This document shows, one piece after another, positions 165-57,510 of a stretch of DNA of 64,000 nt. A model generated the notes under the pieces. That model was not told the DNA's origin. It did not search any database and saw nothing but the letters and a program-made list of their open reading frames with translations. The DNA is from Eledone cirrhosa (lineage: Eukaryota): assembly GCA_964016885.1 (NCBI GenBank), contig CAXHJY010001642.1, positions 1-64,000 of the forward strand. Reading direction: 5' to 3'. Position 1 is the stretch's first letter, and every line of letters starts with the position of its first letter. A program made the position numbers and the translations under genes.

Positions 165-3100
165 TGTAGTTTTCGTGTGATTCAACCAATAAACACAGCA
201 GTTTACCGACTAAAAAAAATAATTTTTGTCAATAACATTTACACCTAACGGCCGATTTCCTTCAAATTCGGAACACACATTCATTATCTTCCCGACTTCA
301 TTTTGGATTCAGTACATTTTGTCTAGTGCACCCACTGGACGAGATATAACAAATAAGAAAAGCCGCATCGTTATAACGCCTCCAGTTTGCGACTGCATCC
401 TACCTTTCCCCTTCACTGGAAGTCCACGCTACATGCATGAGAGAACTCAGGATGCGATGAAATATGTACGTCATTACGGCAGGCCTGATCTGTTTATAAC
501 TTTCACTTGTAATCCTAAATGGAAGGAGATTGAGGCAGAACTCTTCCTCGGTCAACAGGTCAAAGACAGACATGACCTCCTAGCCCGAGTCTTTCGACTG
601 AAGTTAATCAACCTTATGGACCTCATCAAGAAAGGGAAAGTCTTTCGACCTGTACAATGTCACATGTACACAATCGAATGGCAGAAAAGGGGCCTTCCAC
701 ATGATCACATTCTGATTTGGTTATCAACCAAGATAAATTCCAATGACATTGACAAGATAATCTCTGCAGAGCTTCCCGACCCATCCAGCGACAAAGACCT
801 CTACGATATAGTGAAGACAAACATGGTACATAGTCCATGTGGACGTGGCTTCAATCTAAGCTCGCCCTGTTTGAAAGACAATGTGTGCACCAAAAGGTTT
901 CCCAGGAAGTTCCTTATGTAAACCCAGGCTGGTATTGATGGATATCCATTATACAGACGACGGAAACCAGAAGATGGCGGTTTTACAGCAATGGATTGTT
1001 CTGTACTGCCCACTCATATCCAAAACATTCAGCGCCCAAATCAATGTCGAGTTTTGCAATTTTGTCAAGTCTATCAAGTACATATGTAAGTATGTAAATA
1101 AGGGTACCGATGCTGCTATGTTTGGCCTTCAACAGGAAAACAGCCGGGATGGAGTAACACAGTACCAGGTCGGACGTTGCATGAGCAGAAATGGGGCTTT
1201 CTGGCGTATTTTCGGCTTCTCTTTACACCAAAGGCACCCTTCTATCGAGCAGCTTGCATTACACATGGAAAATGGTCAAAGGGTTTACTTCCCCGATTCC
1301 AATGCTGCTTAGTTGGCAGAGGAACCAAGGCAAACCACACTTACTGCCTTCTTCAAGCTTTGTCAAGTCGATCCATTCGCCCAAACCTTGCTATATCCTC
1401 AGGTGCCGTCCTACTATACATGGAATAAAAGAAAATGGGTTCTAAGAAAGGCAGGTCAAGCTGTTGATGGACATCCTGGCATTAAGTTTGACAATTGCTT
1501 TGGGAGAGTTTACACAGTGCATCCCAGCCATCACGAGTGGTTCTATCTCATCTGCTACTGCATGAGGTCAGATGACCACGATCTTTCAAGCACCTAAGAA
1601 CTGTTGACGGGTATGTGTGTGCCACATACAGGGAAGCATACTTTAAACATAGTATGTTAGAAGATGGTGCACAGTGGGATGCAACTTTGTCAGAGGCTGC
1701 TGTATCACAAACACCAAAATGTCTCAGGGCTTTATTTGCATTATTGTTGCAAACATGTGAAATGTGTAATCCTTCGTATTTGTGGTTCAAGTACAGAGAT
1801 GATCTTTCTGAGGATTTTAAACATCTGGCACAACTGCAGTACCCTGACATGGAAGGTACTAGCGATAAAGTCTACAACAGAGCAGTCATTGATATAGAAG
1901 ACAGGATTGTTTCACTCGGTGGAAATGATTTGCCCACATATGGCCTGCCCCAAACATTCCGAACAGGGTCGAACGTACATCCTACAGCCATTCCACGAGA
2001 AACATCCTACGGCATTGATGCTCTTTCCCAATATGTTATCGACACTGAACCACAACTACTTCCGGACCAACAACGGGCTTACAGTACTATTGTCGACAAT
2101 GTGCGCCACCAAAAAGGAGGTATCTTCTTCCTGGATGCACATGCAGGGACAGGACAAACTTTTGTAACGAAGCTCCTCCTTGTAAAAGTTCGGCTGCATA
2201 GGGATATCGCGGTAGCTGTTGCCTCCTCTGGGATTGCTGCTACTTTGCTGCCCGGTGGCAGGACAGAGCACTCGACTTTTAAACTCCCCCTGAATTTAAC
2301 AACATCTGAAACACCTGCAACATCAGTAAAAGCTCAGACCAGGGTCAAGTCCTCAAACGGTGTCATCTCACTGTGTGGGGTGAGTGCACCGTGGCCCACA
2401 AAGGAGCTCTGGAAGCAGTAGATAGAACCCTTAAAGATATCAGAGATTGTCATGCTCCAATGGGAGGTGTAACGCTTCTGCTGTCTGGTGATTTCAGACA
2501 GACACTTCTCATCATTTCCAAAGGCACCAGGGCAGATGAAGTCCAGGCATGCCTTAAATCCTCTCCATTGTGGTGACACCTTACGACCCTGACTCTTACC
2601 ACTAACATGAGAGCTCAACTACATGGTGACCACATGTCTGCCAGGTTTGCACAGGACATTTTGACACTTGGCGATGGCAAGATGCCTCTCGACGTTGCCG
2701 GAGAAATGGACGTCTGGCCATTTTGTACCATTGTTAATTCTGTGGAGGAGCTGAAAGACCAAGTGCTTCCGAACTTGACAGAAAATTACTAAAGTCACAA
2801 TTGGCTATGCGAAAGAGCAATAACGGCTCCAAAAAACATTGCTGCTAATAAACTCAACGAACAGTTAATGCTGTCTCTTCCAGGAAATCTTCACACTTAC
2901 AAGTCTGTCAACACAATCCCGGATCACAATGAAGTGGTGAACTATCCTCCAGAATTTCTCAATTCATTGGAGGCTCCCGGACTACCTCCCTACATATTAG
3001 GACTTAAAGTTGGAACTCCTGTAATGCTGCTTAGGAATCTAGATCCGCCAAGACTGTGCAATGGGACACGACTGGTGGTAAAGAAAATGATGTCACATGT

Positions 3101-4663
3101 TATCCAGGCAACAATTCTTTCTAGATGTGGAAAAGGTGATGACGTCTTCATTCCGAGAATCCCTCTCATTCCATCGGGAGCAGAAATTCCCTTTTCATTC
3201 AGACGTCTGCAATTTTCAATTCGTGTCAGCTTTGCATTGCCCATTAATAAATCCCAAGGTCAGACCCTGTCCGTGGTCAGACTTCTCTTGGAAAGGACAT
3301 ATTTCTCACACGGACAATTGTATGTTGGGTATTCCCGAATGGTAAGCAGAGTAAACCTTTTCGCATTTGCACGGCGCGGAAAAACAAAACATTGTTTACA
3401 ACGAGGTGTTATAATAAAAAAAATACGAGGAGGTAGGTAAGTATTTACCTTTTATTGCACAACCCTGATTATTTCTTATTTCCCTTGCTAACCAAAATCA
3501 GTTTCTTTTGTCTTACGTAAAAGCCGTCAAAGAAGAGATGCTACTGATTCGTAGTTATCTGTATGTAATGAATAAAATAGATGACTCAATGGCTACTGAC
3601 TTATTCCATCCTAGCACTTCTTCTCATTTGGGTTTTTCCTACCAGTCTCGAGCAACGCCGGGATTCACCTTCGTACGAACTCGTTACATTTTCAAATTTG
3701 TGTCTACTGAGCCCTCTACAAGAGAAAACCCGACTTAAAAAAATCATTTGTGTAAATAACTTCTACAGTTTACATCCGATTTCCTTCAAATTTGGAACAA
3801 ACATGCATTATGCTCCCGACTTTATTTTGGACTCATAACATTTTGTTTAGTGCCCCCCTCCCTGGACTAGAAAAAACGAATCGAAAAAATCCGCATCGTT
3901 ATAACGCCTACAGTTTGCGACCGATTTCCTTCAAATTTGGAACTATGCCTCATGTACTAAACATTATTTTGGACTAACCGATTTTTCGAGTTGTTATCTA
4001 ATTCGGGCCCTGTGAGAGAAAAACTAAATAAAAAAAAAGTATCGATGTCAATATCTACACATACAGATATGTGATGTGAGACGGGTGTGTGTGAATGTAT
4101 GTCTGTGTGTGTCTGTCTTAGTATATGTATGTGAGTGTATGTGAGAGTGTGTGTGAGTGTATGTGAGAGTGTATATGTGTGTGAGTGTGTGTGTGATAAT
4201 TTTTATTTTAACGTTAGGCCTCAGAGAATTAAACACACACATATATATAGCGTCAGTAAGTTGCATACACATTATCTTCAAACACAGACAATTAAACACA
4301 CATCTACACATACATATACATATGTGGTGACTGACAAGTTATAGGTTTGCGTGAATGTATGTCTGTGTGTGTCTGTCTTAGTATATGTATATGAGAGTGT
4401 ATGTGTGTGAGTGTGTAGCAACAATTTCTTCATTTGGACAGCACCAAAAAATTACACAATGAATATTGTTTACCCTAAGGTGGTTCAAGATTGACAGATT
4501 TCCATTTCTAAATTCTATTATCATTACAATTTTGATATTTAAAAAAATAAAGTATAGATATTTTGAAATAATTATGAGGAAAAAAAGCATATCTTCATAT
4601 TTATTGTTTACTAATCTGAATAAGAACAGCAGTAACCGGGGCAACGCCGGGTAATTCAGCTAA
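165..4663 (+). mobile_element. Degenerate Helitron (5' boundary approximate)
   Basis: Contains the RepHel remnant. Subrepeats CCGATTTCCTTCAAAT occur at ~252, ~3776 and ~3921. The 3' end has hairpin CCGG-GGCAACG-CCGG (4636-4650) followed by CTAA (CTRR) at 4660-4663. Confidence 0.75.
380..3440 (+). pseudogene. Helitron Rep (HUH endonuclease)/PIF1-like helicase, frameshifted and with stops
   Basis: Rep motifs FTGSPRYM, PDLFITFTCNPKW, EWQKRGLPHxHIL and YICKYVNKG. Helicase motifs FFLDAHAGTGQTF (Walker A K>Q), VASSGIAATLLPGGRT, GDFRQ, NKSQGQ and FSHGQLYV. Spread over at least 7 ORF pieces. Confidence 0.95.
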
Positions 4664-7969: not shown

Positions 7970-8005
<36 letters not shown>

Positions 8006-8009
<4 letters not shown>

Positions 8010-8665
8010 GGAAAAAATGAAACGAAATTTCATTTCCCACTCTTAGTACGGCTGTTATTTAAATATAAGTATGTACACATACATACATATATGTATACAG
8101 ACGTACAGTAGTATGTATATATATATACATACATGAACACATATATATATATGTACGTATGGATTCACCGAACATTTATTATAATGCTCGGTGTGTTTGT
8201 AAACAAACATCCCGCATTAAGCCGTAGTGTCTAGCAACCATCGTTGCTCGTTTGTTCAACGTACTAAGAGTGGGAAATGAAATTTCGTTTCATTTTTTCC
8301 GTTTATCGTTTTCGGTGCACCCGGCCGATTAACCCACTCGATATGCAAATTGGACTACTGAGCCGTTAATATGCATAAGGTAAGTATATACGTTCAACAA
8401 TCTGGCAGGAAGGTATACGTTGGTGAAGATAGCTAATAAGCTTGAAACTAGTACAGCGTTCCTTTGTCAGTGTTGAACAAACGAGCAACGATGGTTGCTA
8501 GACACTACGGCTTAATACGGGATGTTTGTTTACAAACACACCGAGCATTATAATAAATGTTCGGTGAATCCATATGTACATATATATATGTGTGCATGTA
8601 TGTATATATATATACATACTACTGTACGTCTGTATACATATATGTATGTACGTGTACATACTTAT
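8006..8665. mobile_element. Retrozyme-like family C insert (inverted plus head-to-tail); HHR at 8418-8458 has C3G
   Basis: Homologous to 9239-10225, 26847-28150 and 56975-57470. Core reads GUGAAGA. Confidence 0.8.
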
Positions 8666-8724
8666 ATATATATATACATATATATATATGTGGGAAAAAC
8701 CACAAACCCTCCATCTCAACTCTA

Positions 8725-9120: not shown

Positions 9121-9477
9121 TATATATATATTGTTATACAAGTATAACAATATTTGTTTCGACACGCGATTTCATATCAAAAACCTTGCAAAACAAATTC
9201 ATTGCCGTCGTTATATATATATATATATATATATATATAAGTATGCATGTATACGTACATACATATATGTATACAGACGTACAGTAGCATGCACATATAT
9301 ATATATATATACATATATACATACATATGCATACAGGTACACATACATATATGCACGTATCAGTTTAGCGGCGCTAACGTCGCTTTGTTCGTTTGTAAAC
9401 AAACTGAACAGCCTGAATTTATGCCATACGGTGTTAAGGCAACCACGTCACCTTTTTGTTCAACACTGACACAGGAA

Positions 9478-9518
9478 CGATGTACTAGTTTCAAGCTTGT
9501 TAGCTATCATCAGCACCG
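9478..9518 (-). ncRNA. Minimal hammerhead (family C)
   Basis: Reverse complement of 9881-9921. Confidence 0.85.
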
Positions 9519-9880
9519 TTTACCCATCTGCCAGATAGTTGAACGTTCGAAAGTATACACTTTACTTATGAAAATTAACGGCTGAGCAGCCTAATTTGCA
9601 TATTGAGTGAGTTAAATCGGTCAGGCATACCGAAAACGATAAATTGAAACCGTTTTCGGTATGCCTGACCGATTTAACGTATACATGCATACTTACATTT
9701 AAGTAAGTGCCATACTAAGAGTGAGAAATGAAATTTCGTTTTCATTTTGTTTCAATTTATCGTTTTCGGTATGCCTGACCGATTTAACTCACTCAATATG
9801 CAAATTAGGCTGCTCAGCCGTTAATTTTCATAAGTAAAGTGTATACTTTCGAACGTTCAACTATCTGGCAGATGGGTAAA

Positions 9881-9921
9881 CGGTGCTGATGATAGCTAAC
9901 AAGCTTGAAACTAGTACATCG
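9881..9921 (+). ncRNA. Minimal hammerhead (family C)
   Basis: CGGUG-CUGAUGA-U AGCU/AACA/AGCU U-GAAA-CUAG-UA^CAUCG. Confidence 0.85.
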
Positions 9922-10320
9922 TTCCTGTGTCAGTGTTGAACAAAAAGGTGACGTGGTTGCCTTAACACCGTATGGCATAAATTCAGGCTGTTCAGTTTGT
10001 TTACAAACGAACAAAGCGACGTTAGCGCCGCTAAACTGATACGTGCATATATGTATGTGTACCTGTATGCATATGTATGTATATATGTATATATATATAT
10101 ATATGTGCATGCTACTGTACGTCTGTATACATATATGTATGTACGTATACATGCATACTTACATTTAAGTAAGTGCCATACTAAGAGTGAGAAATGAAAT
10201 TTCGTTTTCATTTTGTTTCAATTTATATATATATATATATATATATACCCCTGGCTTAGTAAATATGTAATGAGTCATGATTTTCCAACAAAGAAATGGT
10301 AGTATTTATTTACATGTATA

Positions 10321-14870: not shown

Positions 14871-18540
<3,670 letters not shown>

Positions 18541-25318: not shown

Positions 25319-26311
25319 TTTCTCTTTCTCTTAATTTCGAGTATATTTTTTTGACCGGCCACCTTCCTGGTGGCAAGGTTGTAAAAGAAAAGAAATTGTC
25401 ATCCCTTGAATCGCAAGAATGTTTTGCAAAATTTGAAGGTGCCAGCTATCGCAGCCATTTGCAGACTATGAATTAGGGAGCTGCGCTTTTTGTCCGCAAA
25501 TCCAAGTTCAGTCATACTTTGGTCCAAGCGGGTTGGTATATAACCCGTAGCACCAATAATGATGGGTATGAAGCTAAAGGTGTATCTTGGATACTGGATT
25601 TGTAAACTCCTCATCAATGGTCCGTAGATGTCCTCCTTCTCCTGTATTTTTCTGACAACGTTTATATCAAGTGGGCAGCTGATCTCCACAACAGAACACG
25701 TTTTCAATGTGTGGTCCCAAACTACAATATCAGGCCGGTTGTGCTTTAATTTGGTGGCAGTTTTTATTTTCAGGTTCCACCAGTATTCCTTAGTTCCATC
25801 TGTCTCAATATATTCTTCCTCGTTTGTTGTTAATTTTGTTTTCCGAAGTGCGTTCCAGATGGTTCTAGCTATCCCATCGGGTCTCATGGGGAGGTAGTAG
25901 CGAGATGACATTCTTTCGAAGCTGGCAACAATGTGGCTTACATCCTCGATCTTTGTTTTACATAGCCTACATTTATTGTCAGCTGCTGGCCCTCCTCTTT
26001 TGTGCAGCAGATATTTGGTAGGGAGTTCTTGTTCCTGTATTGCATAGAGATATCCCTCAAGGTGTGATGTCATAAACTTGTCGGAACTCCATACCAGGCT
26101 TTTTGAGTGGTTTATCCCCTCTATGGTCTGTGTTTTACGCCTCAAGTATCCATGCACAACCTTTTCTGTAAATTGGTCAATTTTCTTATCTTGTTTGAAC
26201 ATTGAATAGGATCTTCCGATTTCTCTGGGTGAGAGATTTATATCAGGCTTTATTCCATATCTCTCCTCCAGATCAGTCGCTATTCTAATGATATTTCTTT
26301 TTTCATGCTCA
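25319..26311 (-). mobile_element. 5'-truncated R4/Dong-like (REL endonuclease) non-LTR retrotransposon; C-terminal frame 25399-26311 is open
   Basis: AIQEQEL, zinc knuckle CRLCKTKIEDVSHIV, YLPMRPD (similar to RHD), NRPDIVVWD..VVEISCP..KEDIY, PIIIGATG. Flanked by (TATG)n on both sides. Confidence 0.85.
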
Positions 26312-26416
26312 GTATGTATGTATGTATGTATGTATGTATGTATGTATGTATGTATGTATGTATGTATGTATGTATGTATGTATGTATGTATGTATGTATG
26401 TATACATATGTATGTC

Positions 26417-26845
26417 AGGTCACCAGTTGGTGCTACTGGTAACATGTATCCCAGTACAACCTGTCCCATGGTTGGGTCGTTGGCGACTAAACTGGTAACC
26501 CCACCAAGGTTTCTTGGTGAGGAGGGTGACTTTGGACATCCTGCAAGACTAAAAACAAAACCTGTCAAAGGGCCAAGGAGCTCTTAAGATTCAATAGCCA
26601 TCCAAAATCACCGGGAGAGATGACCCCTTAGCCTTTGTTAAGGCAGAATTCTAGGAGAAGGAAAACTCTGATATAACACCTGCAAACCTGATGGTATCCA
26701 ATGATGTTGACTTGTTCTTCTTTTTGGTAAATATCATATTGGTTAAGAGAGTGGGACTGGCTTTGTGCAGTGCCTTTGCTCACTATAAAAGCTTCACGGC
26801 ACAGGCATTGATTTATATCTGGAGATCTCTCTGCACTTGTCATCT
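26417..26845 (+). mobile_element. Longest 5' portion of the ZF-bearing element, with a structured leader
   Basis: 26621-26845 is the reverse complement of 5610-5831. Multi-hairpin region at 26419-26530. Confidence 0.6.
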
Positions 26846-26846
26846 T

Positions 26847-26878
26847 GATATACATATATGTATACAGACGTACAGTAG

Positions 26879-26952
<74 letters not shown>

Positions 26953-27461
26953 CATGCACACATATATATATATGTGCGTATCGATTCACCGAACATTTAT
27001 TATAATACTCGGTGTGTTTGTAAACAAACATCCCGAATTAAGCCGTACAGTGTCTAGCAACCATCGTTGCTCATTTGTTCAACACTGACAAAGGAACGCT
27101 GTACTAGTTTCAAGCTTATTAGCTATCGTCAGCAACGTATACCTTCCTTCCAGATGGTTGAACGTCTGAAAGTATATACTTTCCTTATGCATATTAACGG
27201 CTGAGCAGCCTAATTTGCATATCGAGTGAGTTAATCGGCCGGGGTACTCATACTTTCAGACGTTCAACCATCTGGAAGGAAGGTATACGTTGCTGACGAT
27301 AGCTAATTAGTACAGCGTTCCTTTGTCAGTATTGAACAAATGAGCAACGATGGTTGTTAGACAATGTACGGCTTAATTCGGGATGTTTGTTTACAAACAC
27401 ACCGAGCATTATAATAAATGTTCGGCGAATCCATACGTACATATATATATATATGTGAGCA

Positions 27462-27541
<80 letters not shown>

Positions 27542-27960
27542 TACTACTGTGCGTCTGTATACATATATGTATGTACGTATACATATATATATTTAAGTAA
27601 CAGCCGTACTAAGAGTGAGAAATGAAATTTCGTTTCATTTTTTCCGTTTATCATTTTAGGTACCCCGGCCGACTGAAGTCACTCGATATGCAAATTAGGC
27701 TGCTCAGCCGTTAATATGCATAAGGAAAGTATATACTTTCAGACTTCAACCATCTGGCAGGAAGGTATACGTTGCTGACGATAGCTAATAAGCTTGAAAC
27801 TAGTACAGCGTTCCTTTGTCAGTGTTTAACAAATGAGCAAGGATGGTTGCTAGACACTGTACGGCTTAATTCGGGATGTTTGTTTACAAACACACCGAGC
27901 ATTATAATAAATGTTCGGTGAATCCATACGTACATATATATATATATATATGTGTGCATG

Positions 27961-28042
<82 letters not shown>

Positions 28043-28148
28043 CTACTGTAAGTCTGTATACATATATGTATGTACGTATACATACTTATATTTAAGTAAC
28101 AGCCGTACTAAGAGTGAGAAATGAAATTTCGTTTCATTTTTTTCCGTT

Positions 28149-28150
<2 letters not shown>
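26847..28150. mobile_element. Family C inverted plus tandem array; HHRs at 27097-27137 (-) and 27770-27810 (+); deleted HHR at ~27288-27317
   Basis: CGUUG-CUGACGA-UAGCUAAUAAGCUU-GAAA-CUAG-UA^CAGCG. Head-to-tail period ~499 bp. Confidence 0.88.
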
Positions 28151-29953: not shown

Positions 29954-30008
<55 letters not shown>

Positions 30009-30011
30009 GTT

Positions 30012-30500
30012 ATTGCGGTGAATTGGCAGTATCGGTAGAGGGTTGGACGCCAAGCTTTCTAGCATAGTTACGGCCCTTTATGATCTGAGTTCAAATCCCG
30101 CCGAGGTTAACTTTGCCTTTCATCCTTGTGGGGTCGATAAAATAAAGTACCAGTAATACACTGGGATAATGCTGGCCTTGTGCCAAAAAGTAGAAACAAT
30201 TATTATTATTGCGGTGAATTGGCAGTATCGGTAGAGGGTTGGACGACATGCTTTCTAGCATAGTTACGTCCCTTTATGATCTGAGTTCAAATCCCGCCGA
30301 GGTTAACTTTTCCTTTCATCCTTGTGGGGTCGATGAAATAAAGTACCAGTAATACACTCGGATAATACTGACCTTGTGCCAAAAGTCGAAACAATTATTA
30401 TTGGAATGGCAGTATCGGTAGAGCGTCAGACATCATGCTTTGCGGCATAGAGTTATGGCCCTTTACGTTCTGAGTTCAAATCCAGCCGAGGTTAACTTTC
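30012..30500 (+). mobile_element. Three head-to-tail S1 SINE copies after an (ATT)n tract
   Basis: Units start at ~30014, ~30209 and ~30403 and are separated by short ATT tails. Confidence 0.85.
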
Positions 30501-54809: not shown

Positions 54810-54869
54810 TATTTTATTATACGTATTTCAAGGGTACTAATATTTAAGTACGTTTCGTCAGATAAAATA
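54810..54869 (-). ncRNA. Hammerhead (family D variant)
   Basis: UAUUUUAU-CUGACGA-AACGUACU..AGUACCCUU-GAAA-UACGUA-UA^AUAAAAUA. Confidence 0.8.
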
Positions 54870-55323
54870 TAACTGTTTCTACTTTAGGCACAAGGCCAGC
54901 AATTATCCAGTGCATTACTGGTACTTTATTTTATCGACCCCGTAAGGATGAAAGGCAAAGTCAACCTCGGCGGGATTTGAACTCAGATCGTAAAGGGACG
55001 TAACTATGCTGGAAAGCATGGCGGCCGACCCTCTACCGATACTGCCAATCCATAAAATATAATTGTTTCTACTTTTGGCACAAGGCCAGCAATTATTCCA
55101 GTGCATTACTGGTACTTTATTTTATCGACCCCGTAAGGATGAAAGGCAAAGTTAACCTCGGCGGGATTTGAACTTAGATCATAAAGGGAGGTAACTCTAT
55201 GCTTCAAAGCATGGCGTCCGACCCTTACCGATACTGCCAATCCACCGCCAATCCATAAAATATAATAATTGGTGTTAAGATAGTGACATATCTTCATGTG
55301 AACTTAATGGTATAAGTCCAATT

Positions 55324-56689: not shown

Positions 56690-56962
56690 AAGCAATGAGC
56701 ACAGAGCAACGAACAAGCTTCAAAACTCCGTCAAAAGCACTGAGATTGCTGCAGCAAGTGTATGGAGATGAGACGATGTCACGCCCACGTGTTTTTGAGT
56801 GGTGCAAGAGGTTTAAAGAAGGACACGAGGACGTGGAAGATGACCCCAGGAGTGGAAGGCCCTCAACAAACAGGACTGAGGTCAACGTTGAGTGCGTCAG
56901 GCAGATGGTGCGTAGCGATCGTCGGCTGACTGTTCGACTGATGGCAAATGAGCTGGGCATTT
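56690..56962 (+). mobile_element. Mariner transposase N-terminal (HTH) fragment
   Basis: MSTEQR...VYGDETMSRPRVFEWCKRFKEG..VEDDPRSGRP...DRRLTVR.MANELGI. Confidence 0.9.
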
Positions 56963-57468
56963 CTCACTCTTAGTATGGCTGATACCTAAATATAAGTATG
57001 TATACGTACATACATATATGTGTACAGACGCACAGTAGTATGTATATATATATATATACATGCACACATATATATATATGTACGTATGGATTTACCGAAC
57101 ATTTATTAAAATGTTCCGTATGCCCGGCTGACTAACTCACTCGATATGCAAATTAGGCTGCTCAGCCGTTAATATGCATAAGGAAAGTATATACTTTCAG
57201 ACGTTCAATCATCTGACCGAAAGGTATACGATGCTGACGATAGCTAATAAGCTTAAAACTAGTACATCGTTCCTGTGTCAGTGTTGAACAAAAGGGCGAC
57301 GATGGTTGCCGAGCACTGTACGGCGTAATTCGGGCTGTTTGTTTACAAACACACCGAACATTATAATAAATGTTCGGTAAACCCATACGTATATATATAT
57401 ATGTGTGCATGTATGTATATACATACTACTCTAACGTCTGTACACATATATGTATGTACGTATACATA

Positions 57469-57472
<4 letters not shown>
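56963..57472. mobile_element. Family C insert truncating the mariner; HHR at 57229-57269 (+) has G12A
   Basis: CGAUG-CUGACGA-UAGCUAAUAAGCUU-AAAA-CUAG-UA-CAUCG. Confidence 0.8.

Positions 57473-57510
<38 letters not shown>

Follow-up and report, generated by a model that had tools for sequence, protein, structure and literature searches.

The window analysed here, a stretch of 64,000 nucleotides of Eledone cirrhosa DNA, carries at 8.0, 9.2, 26.8 and 57.0 kb a non-coding hammerhead repeat termed Family C. The first-pass annotation had placed these four loci in one unit family, and all four do match the Family C unit. Every Family C locus in the window is a head-to-head inverted pair of arms. 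Two units served as references, uA at 9760-10225 (466 nt) and uB at 27651-28150 (500 nt), which are 73% alike. The window further contains frames at 223-3440 (+) resembling what we take to be pieces of a Helitron Rep and a PIF1-like helicase and, at 25399-26583 (-) and adjoining the 26.8 kb insert, presumably the C-terminal piece of a non-LTR retrotransposon protein. The Family C features are as follows.

8005..8260, minus strand: minus arm of the 8.0 kb insert; long 3' end facing (TA)n; older subfamily with an internal deletion
8260..8667, plus strand: plus arm of the 8.0 kb insert; runs through the unit junction (8305/8306) to a short 3' end; substitution in the hammerhead core at about 8423
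9212..9237, no strand: left-hand (TA)n target tract at the 9.2 kb insert
9238..9650, minus strand: minus arm of the 9.2 kb insert; made up of unit 456-466 followed by 1-402; short 3' site facing (TA)n; 100% identical to the plus arm
9478..9518, minus strand: minus-arm hammerhead of the 9.2 kb insert; type I, intact core
9651..9678, plus strand: extra piece at the inversion joint of the 9.2 kb insert; unit 2-29
9677..10225, plus strand: plus arm of the 9.2 kb insert; unit 384-466, then a full 466-nt unit (9760-10225); long 3' site facing (TA)n
9881..9921, plus strand: plus-arm hammerhead of the 9.2 kb insert; type I, predicted to cut at 9916/9917; core intact, stem III of 2 bp, stem II with U-U at its base
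10226..10247, no strand: right-hand (TA)n target tract at the 9.2 kb insert
26850..27247, minus strand: minus arm of the 26.8 kb insert; intact hammerhead at 27097-27137; outer end off the standard sites
27250..28150, plus strand: plus arm of the 26.8 kb insert; 1.8 turns; long 3' end facing (TA)n; intact hammerhead at 27770-27810
56958..57122, minus strand: minus arm of the 57.0 kb insert; outer end falls short of the long site
57123..57475, plus strand: plus arm of the 57.0 kb insert; short 3' end facing (TA)n; hammerhead (about 57234) with its core substituted at 57255

The seamless passage from unit end to unit start, reported earlier for three of the loci, is present at 8305/8306, 9759/9760 and 27650/27651, and a minus-strand junction at 9640/9639 can be added. 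The reported period likewise holds, being exactly 466 at 9677/10143 and 493-500 at the 26.8 kb locus. Copying for more than one turn had been claimed more broadly; it is found only in the insert at 9.2 kb, with 1.2 turns in 549 nt, and in that at 26.8 kb, with 1.8 turns in 901 nt, and these two arms do not decide whether the template was a circle. The rule of one hammerhead per unit stands for the motif, but not for an intact core, which is present at only four of seven window positions (9513-, 9886+, 27132-, 27775+); the second hammerhead of the 26.8 kb plus arm, at about 27293, has a deletion. The extra piece at the 9.2 kb inversion joint is probably the remnant of a template switch.

Across the 3.0-Gb genome, an exact 31-nt stretch of the Family C core has 24,001 matches, as against none for the reversed control, and there are 14,459 head-to-tail junctions and 32,280 tail motifs. 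The repeat and its hammerhead motif are thus genuine and lie far beyond chance. The unit measures 466-500 nt, is low in GC and contains no ORF apart from TA-repeat frames; arms hold up to 15 units, and up to 19 hammerhead-bearing units follow one another with no intervening ORF. The hammerhead is of type I, with the U-U at the stem II base and the 2-bp stem III seen in the window, and of 473 units sampled from 154 loci, 425 retain all 12 core bases. In the sampled units stems I-III are paired, and the covariation noted earlier in stem I is borne out at one pair, 124-160, which occurs in four pairing types (G-T 121, T-G 90, A-T 16, T-A 7) and is paired in 236 of 245 haplotypes. Self-cleavage of the RNA is a prediction from sequence, and an Rfam search returned no Family C match at the gathering threshold. 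The monomer is predicted to fold at -155 kcal/mol (z -8.0, a score to which a TA-rich hairpin contributes), and 67-74% of it is paired in circular-fold predictions. Unmasked self-BLAST of the window was dominated by microsatellites, and a DNA search with window positions 9960-10060, in which common words are skipped, gave no match. Contigs from four runs, of DNA or RNA, include the Family C unit, although neither expression nor circularity can be read from them; with window positions 9677-10063, run X1 yielded just one contig of the young unit, 470 nt long, which may come from low-level DNA or RNA, and run X2 thousands.

The architecture of the inserts was mapped in 150 cases, of which five were dropped (three cut at the locus edge, two of low identity). 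This sample consists of the top DNA matches and the first-listed pattern matches, lies mostly on contig C1 and is not random. Within it, all 83 two-armed inserts are head-to-head. Their 166 outer ends fall at a long site (unit 447-466; 76 ends), at a short site about 60 nt away (395-415; 68 ends) or elsewhere (22 ends), and a long end is combined with a short one in 60 of the 83. A TA-rich flank accompanies 96 of the 144 ends at the standard sites, as opposed to 3 of the 22 others. The first-pass annotation had inserts starting and stopping at varied points of the unit and expected circular permutation of the copy endpoints. This has to be withdrawn for the outer 3' ends, which in the sampled inserts are fixed and not permuted; only the inner 5' ends scatter. 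Exact mapping of a young set gave the combination of long and short ends in 39 of 47 inserts and inner ends compatible with a uniform distribution (KS p 0.08, n=88), with no pile-up at the predicted hammerhead cut (2 of 88, 1.3 expected). An apparent excess of 5' ends at unit positions 1-5 (20 of 166) proved to be a mapping artefact, as exact mapping places none of 88 there. Arms spanning two or more cut sites number 62 of 227. Inversion joints overlap by microhomology in 33 of the 47 young inserts. Target-site duplications are not visible, since insertion into (TA)n masks them.

The two arms of an insert also agree in haplotype: the state of a 6-nt indel is the same in both arms of all 38 inserts compared, and that of site 320 in 28 of 32. 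Further, six of 47 long arms stop at 403-415, where short arms start, as against 1.3 expected (p 0.002, the interval having been picked post hoc). Both observations fit two primings of one RNA. The loci L062 (6828-6884) and L064 (2142-2198) have different haplotypes and an identical inversion joint (unit 410 to 121); joint position 121, at the foot of stem I, recurs in L063. At L071 (3794-5407) the unit measures 412 nt, and a deletion of 52 nt recurs in every unit of the two arms.

These ends are the footprint of a PLE, in which, as far as the sections available of Craig et al. 2021 (PMC8557442) describe it, an inverted 5'-truncated copy accompanies a tail at one end. In the portions of Frangieh et al. 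2024 (PMC11167929) compared here, a PLE acting in vitro has two internal start sites, and both strands are cut and extended. That Family C is a retrozyme-like element moved by a PLE RT, as the first-pass annotation held, is therefore well supported by the tail-type ends, the (TA)n targets, the head-to-head arms and one chimera with a young PLE. The argument once drawn from endpoints and junctions for a circular template fails, because scattered 5' ends and junction read-through are, going by what could be compared of PMC8557442, typical of any partial-tandem PLE insertion and do not by themselves imply a circle.

The chimera (C1:437.956 Mb; L062:8322-8400, also L140) consists of a Family C short-end arm lying head-to-head with a 5'-truncated young PLE, with no TA between them. 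Its PLE arm ends at the PLE's own long end, so that the long-plus-short rule is kept, and the chimera is one insertion event from two RNAs. The young PLE (L136:1656-4145; also G000:C1692, C3:110.67 Mb and many more, with 141 near-identical matches scored) has an intact 830-codon frame in a 6.3-kb tandem unit, a hammerhead-like motif with a very long stem II, and two ends of its own about 140 nt apart, in (TA)n. A survey of its copies covered 70 loci (two rows being both sides of one insertion), of which 16 reached the ORF start; head-to-head arms occur in 38 of 54 truncated copies. A Family C arm was found in none of the 53 other truncated copies, and no significant sequence similarity links the Family C unit to the one young PLE compared. 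The partner thus is a lead from one young case found by chance, and this PLE is the likely candidate. The PLE's short-end region (L136:1380-1435) is weakly like the long-end region of the unit (430-480), a likeness that for uA is not above shuffled controls. An older Family C joint with a different PLE family is present at L142. Broken PLE-like frames at 15457-18436 (-) of the window have close copies elsewhere, at 93-95% protein identity.

The assignment of the young PLE as Hydra-type was made by motifs read from translations, not by tree. The translation contains a CxCX5C linker, a DKT motif, a C-terminal endonuclease and CxxC and CxH near the C end, which, together with the (TA)n targets, it shares with the Hydra clade; two cysteines lie nine apart between GIY- and YIG-like motifs and may belong to a CCHH motif, which the Hydra clade lacks. 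It differs from Hydra elements, which are generally under 3 kb, in its tandem unit of about 6.3 kb, and it has RWR, not RWK. A 'Neptune' label for the partner was dropped after the motifs had been compared with the Hydra description. Pfam offered no useful family for the PLE frame, and an Atlas search with it returned look-alikes bearing GIY-YIG and RT.

Signs of how the template was used lie in private variants common to all units of an array. At L062, six locus-private A>G changes (on the hammerhead strand) are present in all 11 covering units of both arms. A motif with three of the six, specific to the L062 variant, has 12 matches in the genome, 11 in the L062 array itself and one in a different subfamily, and the motif search of this assembly revealed no source array that carries the changes. 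A second cluster, of four A>G, occupies all three covering units of L244, again in both arms. A strand-biased cluster of A>G changes is a signature of ADAR editing. In a wider count, 84 young inserts were mapped and seven dropped as over-diverged, leaving 77. Among these, 44 arrays had at least three units; excluded were three older arrays and variants in the majority in three or more inserts. In these 44 young arrays, 17 of 24 array-wide variants are A>G and 2 are T>C, as compared with 13 and 14 of 153 singletons (Fisher p 0.005). Counted by array the excess is borderline (8 vs 2, p 0.054). When arrays of only two units are also admitted, the ratio is 24:4 for array-wide variants vs 25:23 for singletons, and 12 vs 4 by array (p 0.04). 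The young-set excess is largely due to the two clusters, and many of the other sites belong to the TA-rich part, which cannot be aligned with certainty. Older subfamilies have no A>G excess, the array-wide A>G:T>C ratios being 2:3 (41 arrays, non-microsatellite part) and 0:1 (20 arrays), and the A>G sites have no clear neighbour or pairing preference. Heavy editing of repeats, including in octopus and in a lizard Penelope, is described in the sections available of PMC5625713. A single older-subfamily copy at L235 (3150-3505) has many apparent A>G, some of them at L062 sites.

Identical clusters in all units would hardly arise by separate editing of the units, which is why we infer that one monomer was copied repeatedly. 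The earlier claim of a circular template can be retained on this ground for some arrays, although its original argument is lost. At L245, five of five hammerhead-bearing units lack the same 7 nt, a gap that may be aligned directly at the predicted cut, as a trimmed and re-ligated circle would give; the gap would also fit a 1-nt microhomology deletion. Among the listed matches no clear enrichment of cut-site deletions was seen by eye, so L245 counts as a single case. Other arrays are patchy, with a repeat order of 6, 3 and 2 in L061, L204 and L070, respectively (the L204 pattern being common to both arms), and L205 has a block of six identical units; multimer templates or subsequent DNA duplication therefore occur too. 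Genomic signs suggest that Family C may form circular RNA, and a circular template is probable for some arrays.

We consider it probable that Family C is a protein-free non-LTR retrozyme found in back-to-back arrays with fixed, unequal outer ends, and that a PLE-like enzyme cuts (TA)n and, starting at the two DNA ends, reverse-transcribes a single RNA that is likely a circle. Arrays would be transcribed and cut by their hammerheads to monomers of 466-500 nt, sometimes multimers, which would be ligated, some having been A-to-I edited. The PLE endonuclease would nick both strands, each 3'-OH priming RT at an internal site, unit ~405 or ~466; this step is deduced from the fixed ends and from the in vitro work on another PLE (PMC11167929, as far as its available sections go). 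In the sequence itself both arms have one and the same haplotype and can extend over many turns. The two cDNAs would each break off at a largely random position, and microhomology would then unite them in the head-to-head joint. A more specific version, towards which we lean slightly, makes each young array the fossil of one RNA circle: a Hydra-type PLE acting in trans would prime the circle from both nicked strands, roll for up to a dozen or more turns and write ADAR edits and the ligation scar into every unit, with patchy arrays stemming from dimer-hexamer circles.

The same twin priming by a PLE could dispense with the circle if an existing array were transcribed into a long linear multimer that served as the template, a possibility which we regard as unlikely. 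The higher-order patterns of L061, L204 (in both arms) and L070 would be expected of such a template, long arms halting at the short site fit non-overlapping priming on linear RNA, and the weak hammerhead stems, the lack of an A>G excess in older arrays and, in the portions compared of PMC11167929, the acceptance of uncleaved RNA by a lizard PLE in vitro point the same way. However, independent editing of 11 units would not yield the same six changes in each, the assembly offers no source array for them, and the hammerhead-broken L245 form is, within its subfamily, confined to the L245 array among the 76 matches listed, as judged by eye. Identical edits in all units would be explained as well as by a circle if the enzyme jumped from end to end of a hammerhead-cut linear monomer whose ends are paired in stem I, and no ligase would be required. 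Such a nicked circle is nevertheless quite improbable, as the cut site is crossed cleanly (shortened matches number 76 and 15 on its two sides, as opposed to the 24,001 exact cores), 5' ends do not pile up at the cut and all five turns at L245 bear an identical scar.

Very improbable, in our estimate, is the later expansion in DNA, through slippage or unequal crossing-over, of PLE-type inserts of about one turn. The sections available of 10.64898/2026.07.22.740005 discuss such a route, which would account for the period-6 repeat of L061, the L205 block of six and the array-wide variants of older copies, which resemble ordinary mutations; the array-wide variants of young arrays are strand-biased to A>G (17/24 vs 13/153), unlike DNA mutations, and private variants are common to both arms, across the inversion. 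The reading of the loci as plain pLTR fragments of an autonomous PLE, raised beforehand, has by now been largely refuted, and we give it next to no weight. All end features do match PLE partial tandems as the available portions of PMC8557442 describe them, and about 17% of the 16,515 forward tail motifs lie outside the two exact patterns tested. Yet 7,519 of these motifs enter the unit start and 6,142 enter (TA)n, together about 83%, and with five PLE protein pieces as queries no unit end continued into a PLE frame start in 220 loci, some of them overlapping; these two results tell against pLTR fragments, as do the ORF-free runs of up to 19 hammerhead-bearing units.

Family C can be set beside known systems, which are compared here as the available sections of the cited papers present them. 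Metazoan non-LTR retrozymes were described by Cervera and de la Pena 2020 (PMC7229834) and by Li, Clavereau and Pollet 2026 (10.64898/2026.07.22.740005). Like them, Family C is tandem and non-coding, has one type I hammerhead per unit, is low in GC and strongly self-paired, and occurs in thousands of copies in a genome that also contains PLEs; the U-U at its stem II base and its 2-bp stem III resemble, by description, those of the axolotl HHR_Amex2. By its sequence, Family C is a non-LTR retrozyme in the features examined, namely the tandem non-coding unit, the type I hammerhead and the predicted self-paired monomer. It is longer, at 466-500 nt, than the retrozymes of 170-400 nt in PMC7229834. 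Described retrozymes form tandem copies with target duplications, whereas Family C has head-to-head arms, two fixed ends in (TA)n, edit-marked arrays and a PLE chimera; circles have been demonstrated for the former and are predicted for Family C. With endonuclease-bearing PLEs it shares partial tandems, an inverted 5'-truncated copy, a tail at one end, (TA)n or AT-rich targets and, probably, two RT start sites and the cutting and extension of both strands; it differs in having no ORF, in a tail of about 60 nt vs 30-40 and in arms that may both hold many units. Non-autonomous derivatives of Chlamys PLEs such as MRC1 (PMC8557442) generally resemble the 3' end of an autonomous family, unlike Family C when set against the young PLE, and most Chlamys PLEs are described in that source as being without hammerheads.

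In the literature searched, no description of Family C or of edit-marked retrozyme arrays was found; a prior description is possible. In the sections compared, no earlier report of the two-armed footprint, the edit-marked arrays or the PLE chimera is evident for retrozymes. The idea that PLEs insert retrozymes from a circular template has itself been put forward before (PMC7229834; 10.64898/2026.07.22.740005, in the sections available): circle-rolling RT by PLEs has been proposed since 2020, with no demonstration in the literature compared, and the origin of tandem and inverted PLE insertions is called an open question there. Family C offers a young and abundant test case, in which both priming sites have been mapped, an intact candidate enzyme can be named and the A>G marks common to an array would lead all its units back to a single RNA; it also suggests a route from RNA editing to heritable DNA change in many copies at once.

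Two further features of the window were recorded. A minimal hammerhead-like motif at 39160-39210 (+) is unrelated to Family C, and a repeat of 191-196 nt, SINE-like in size, lies in tandem at 30003-30499 and 54862-55244.
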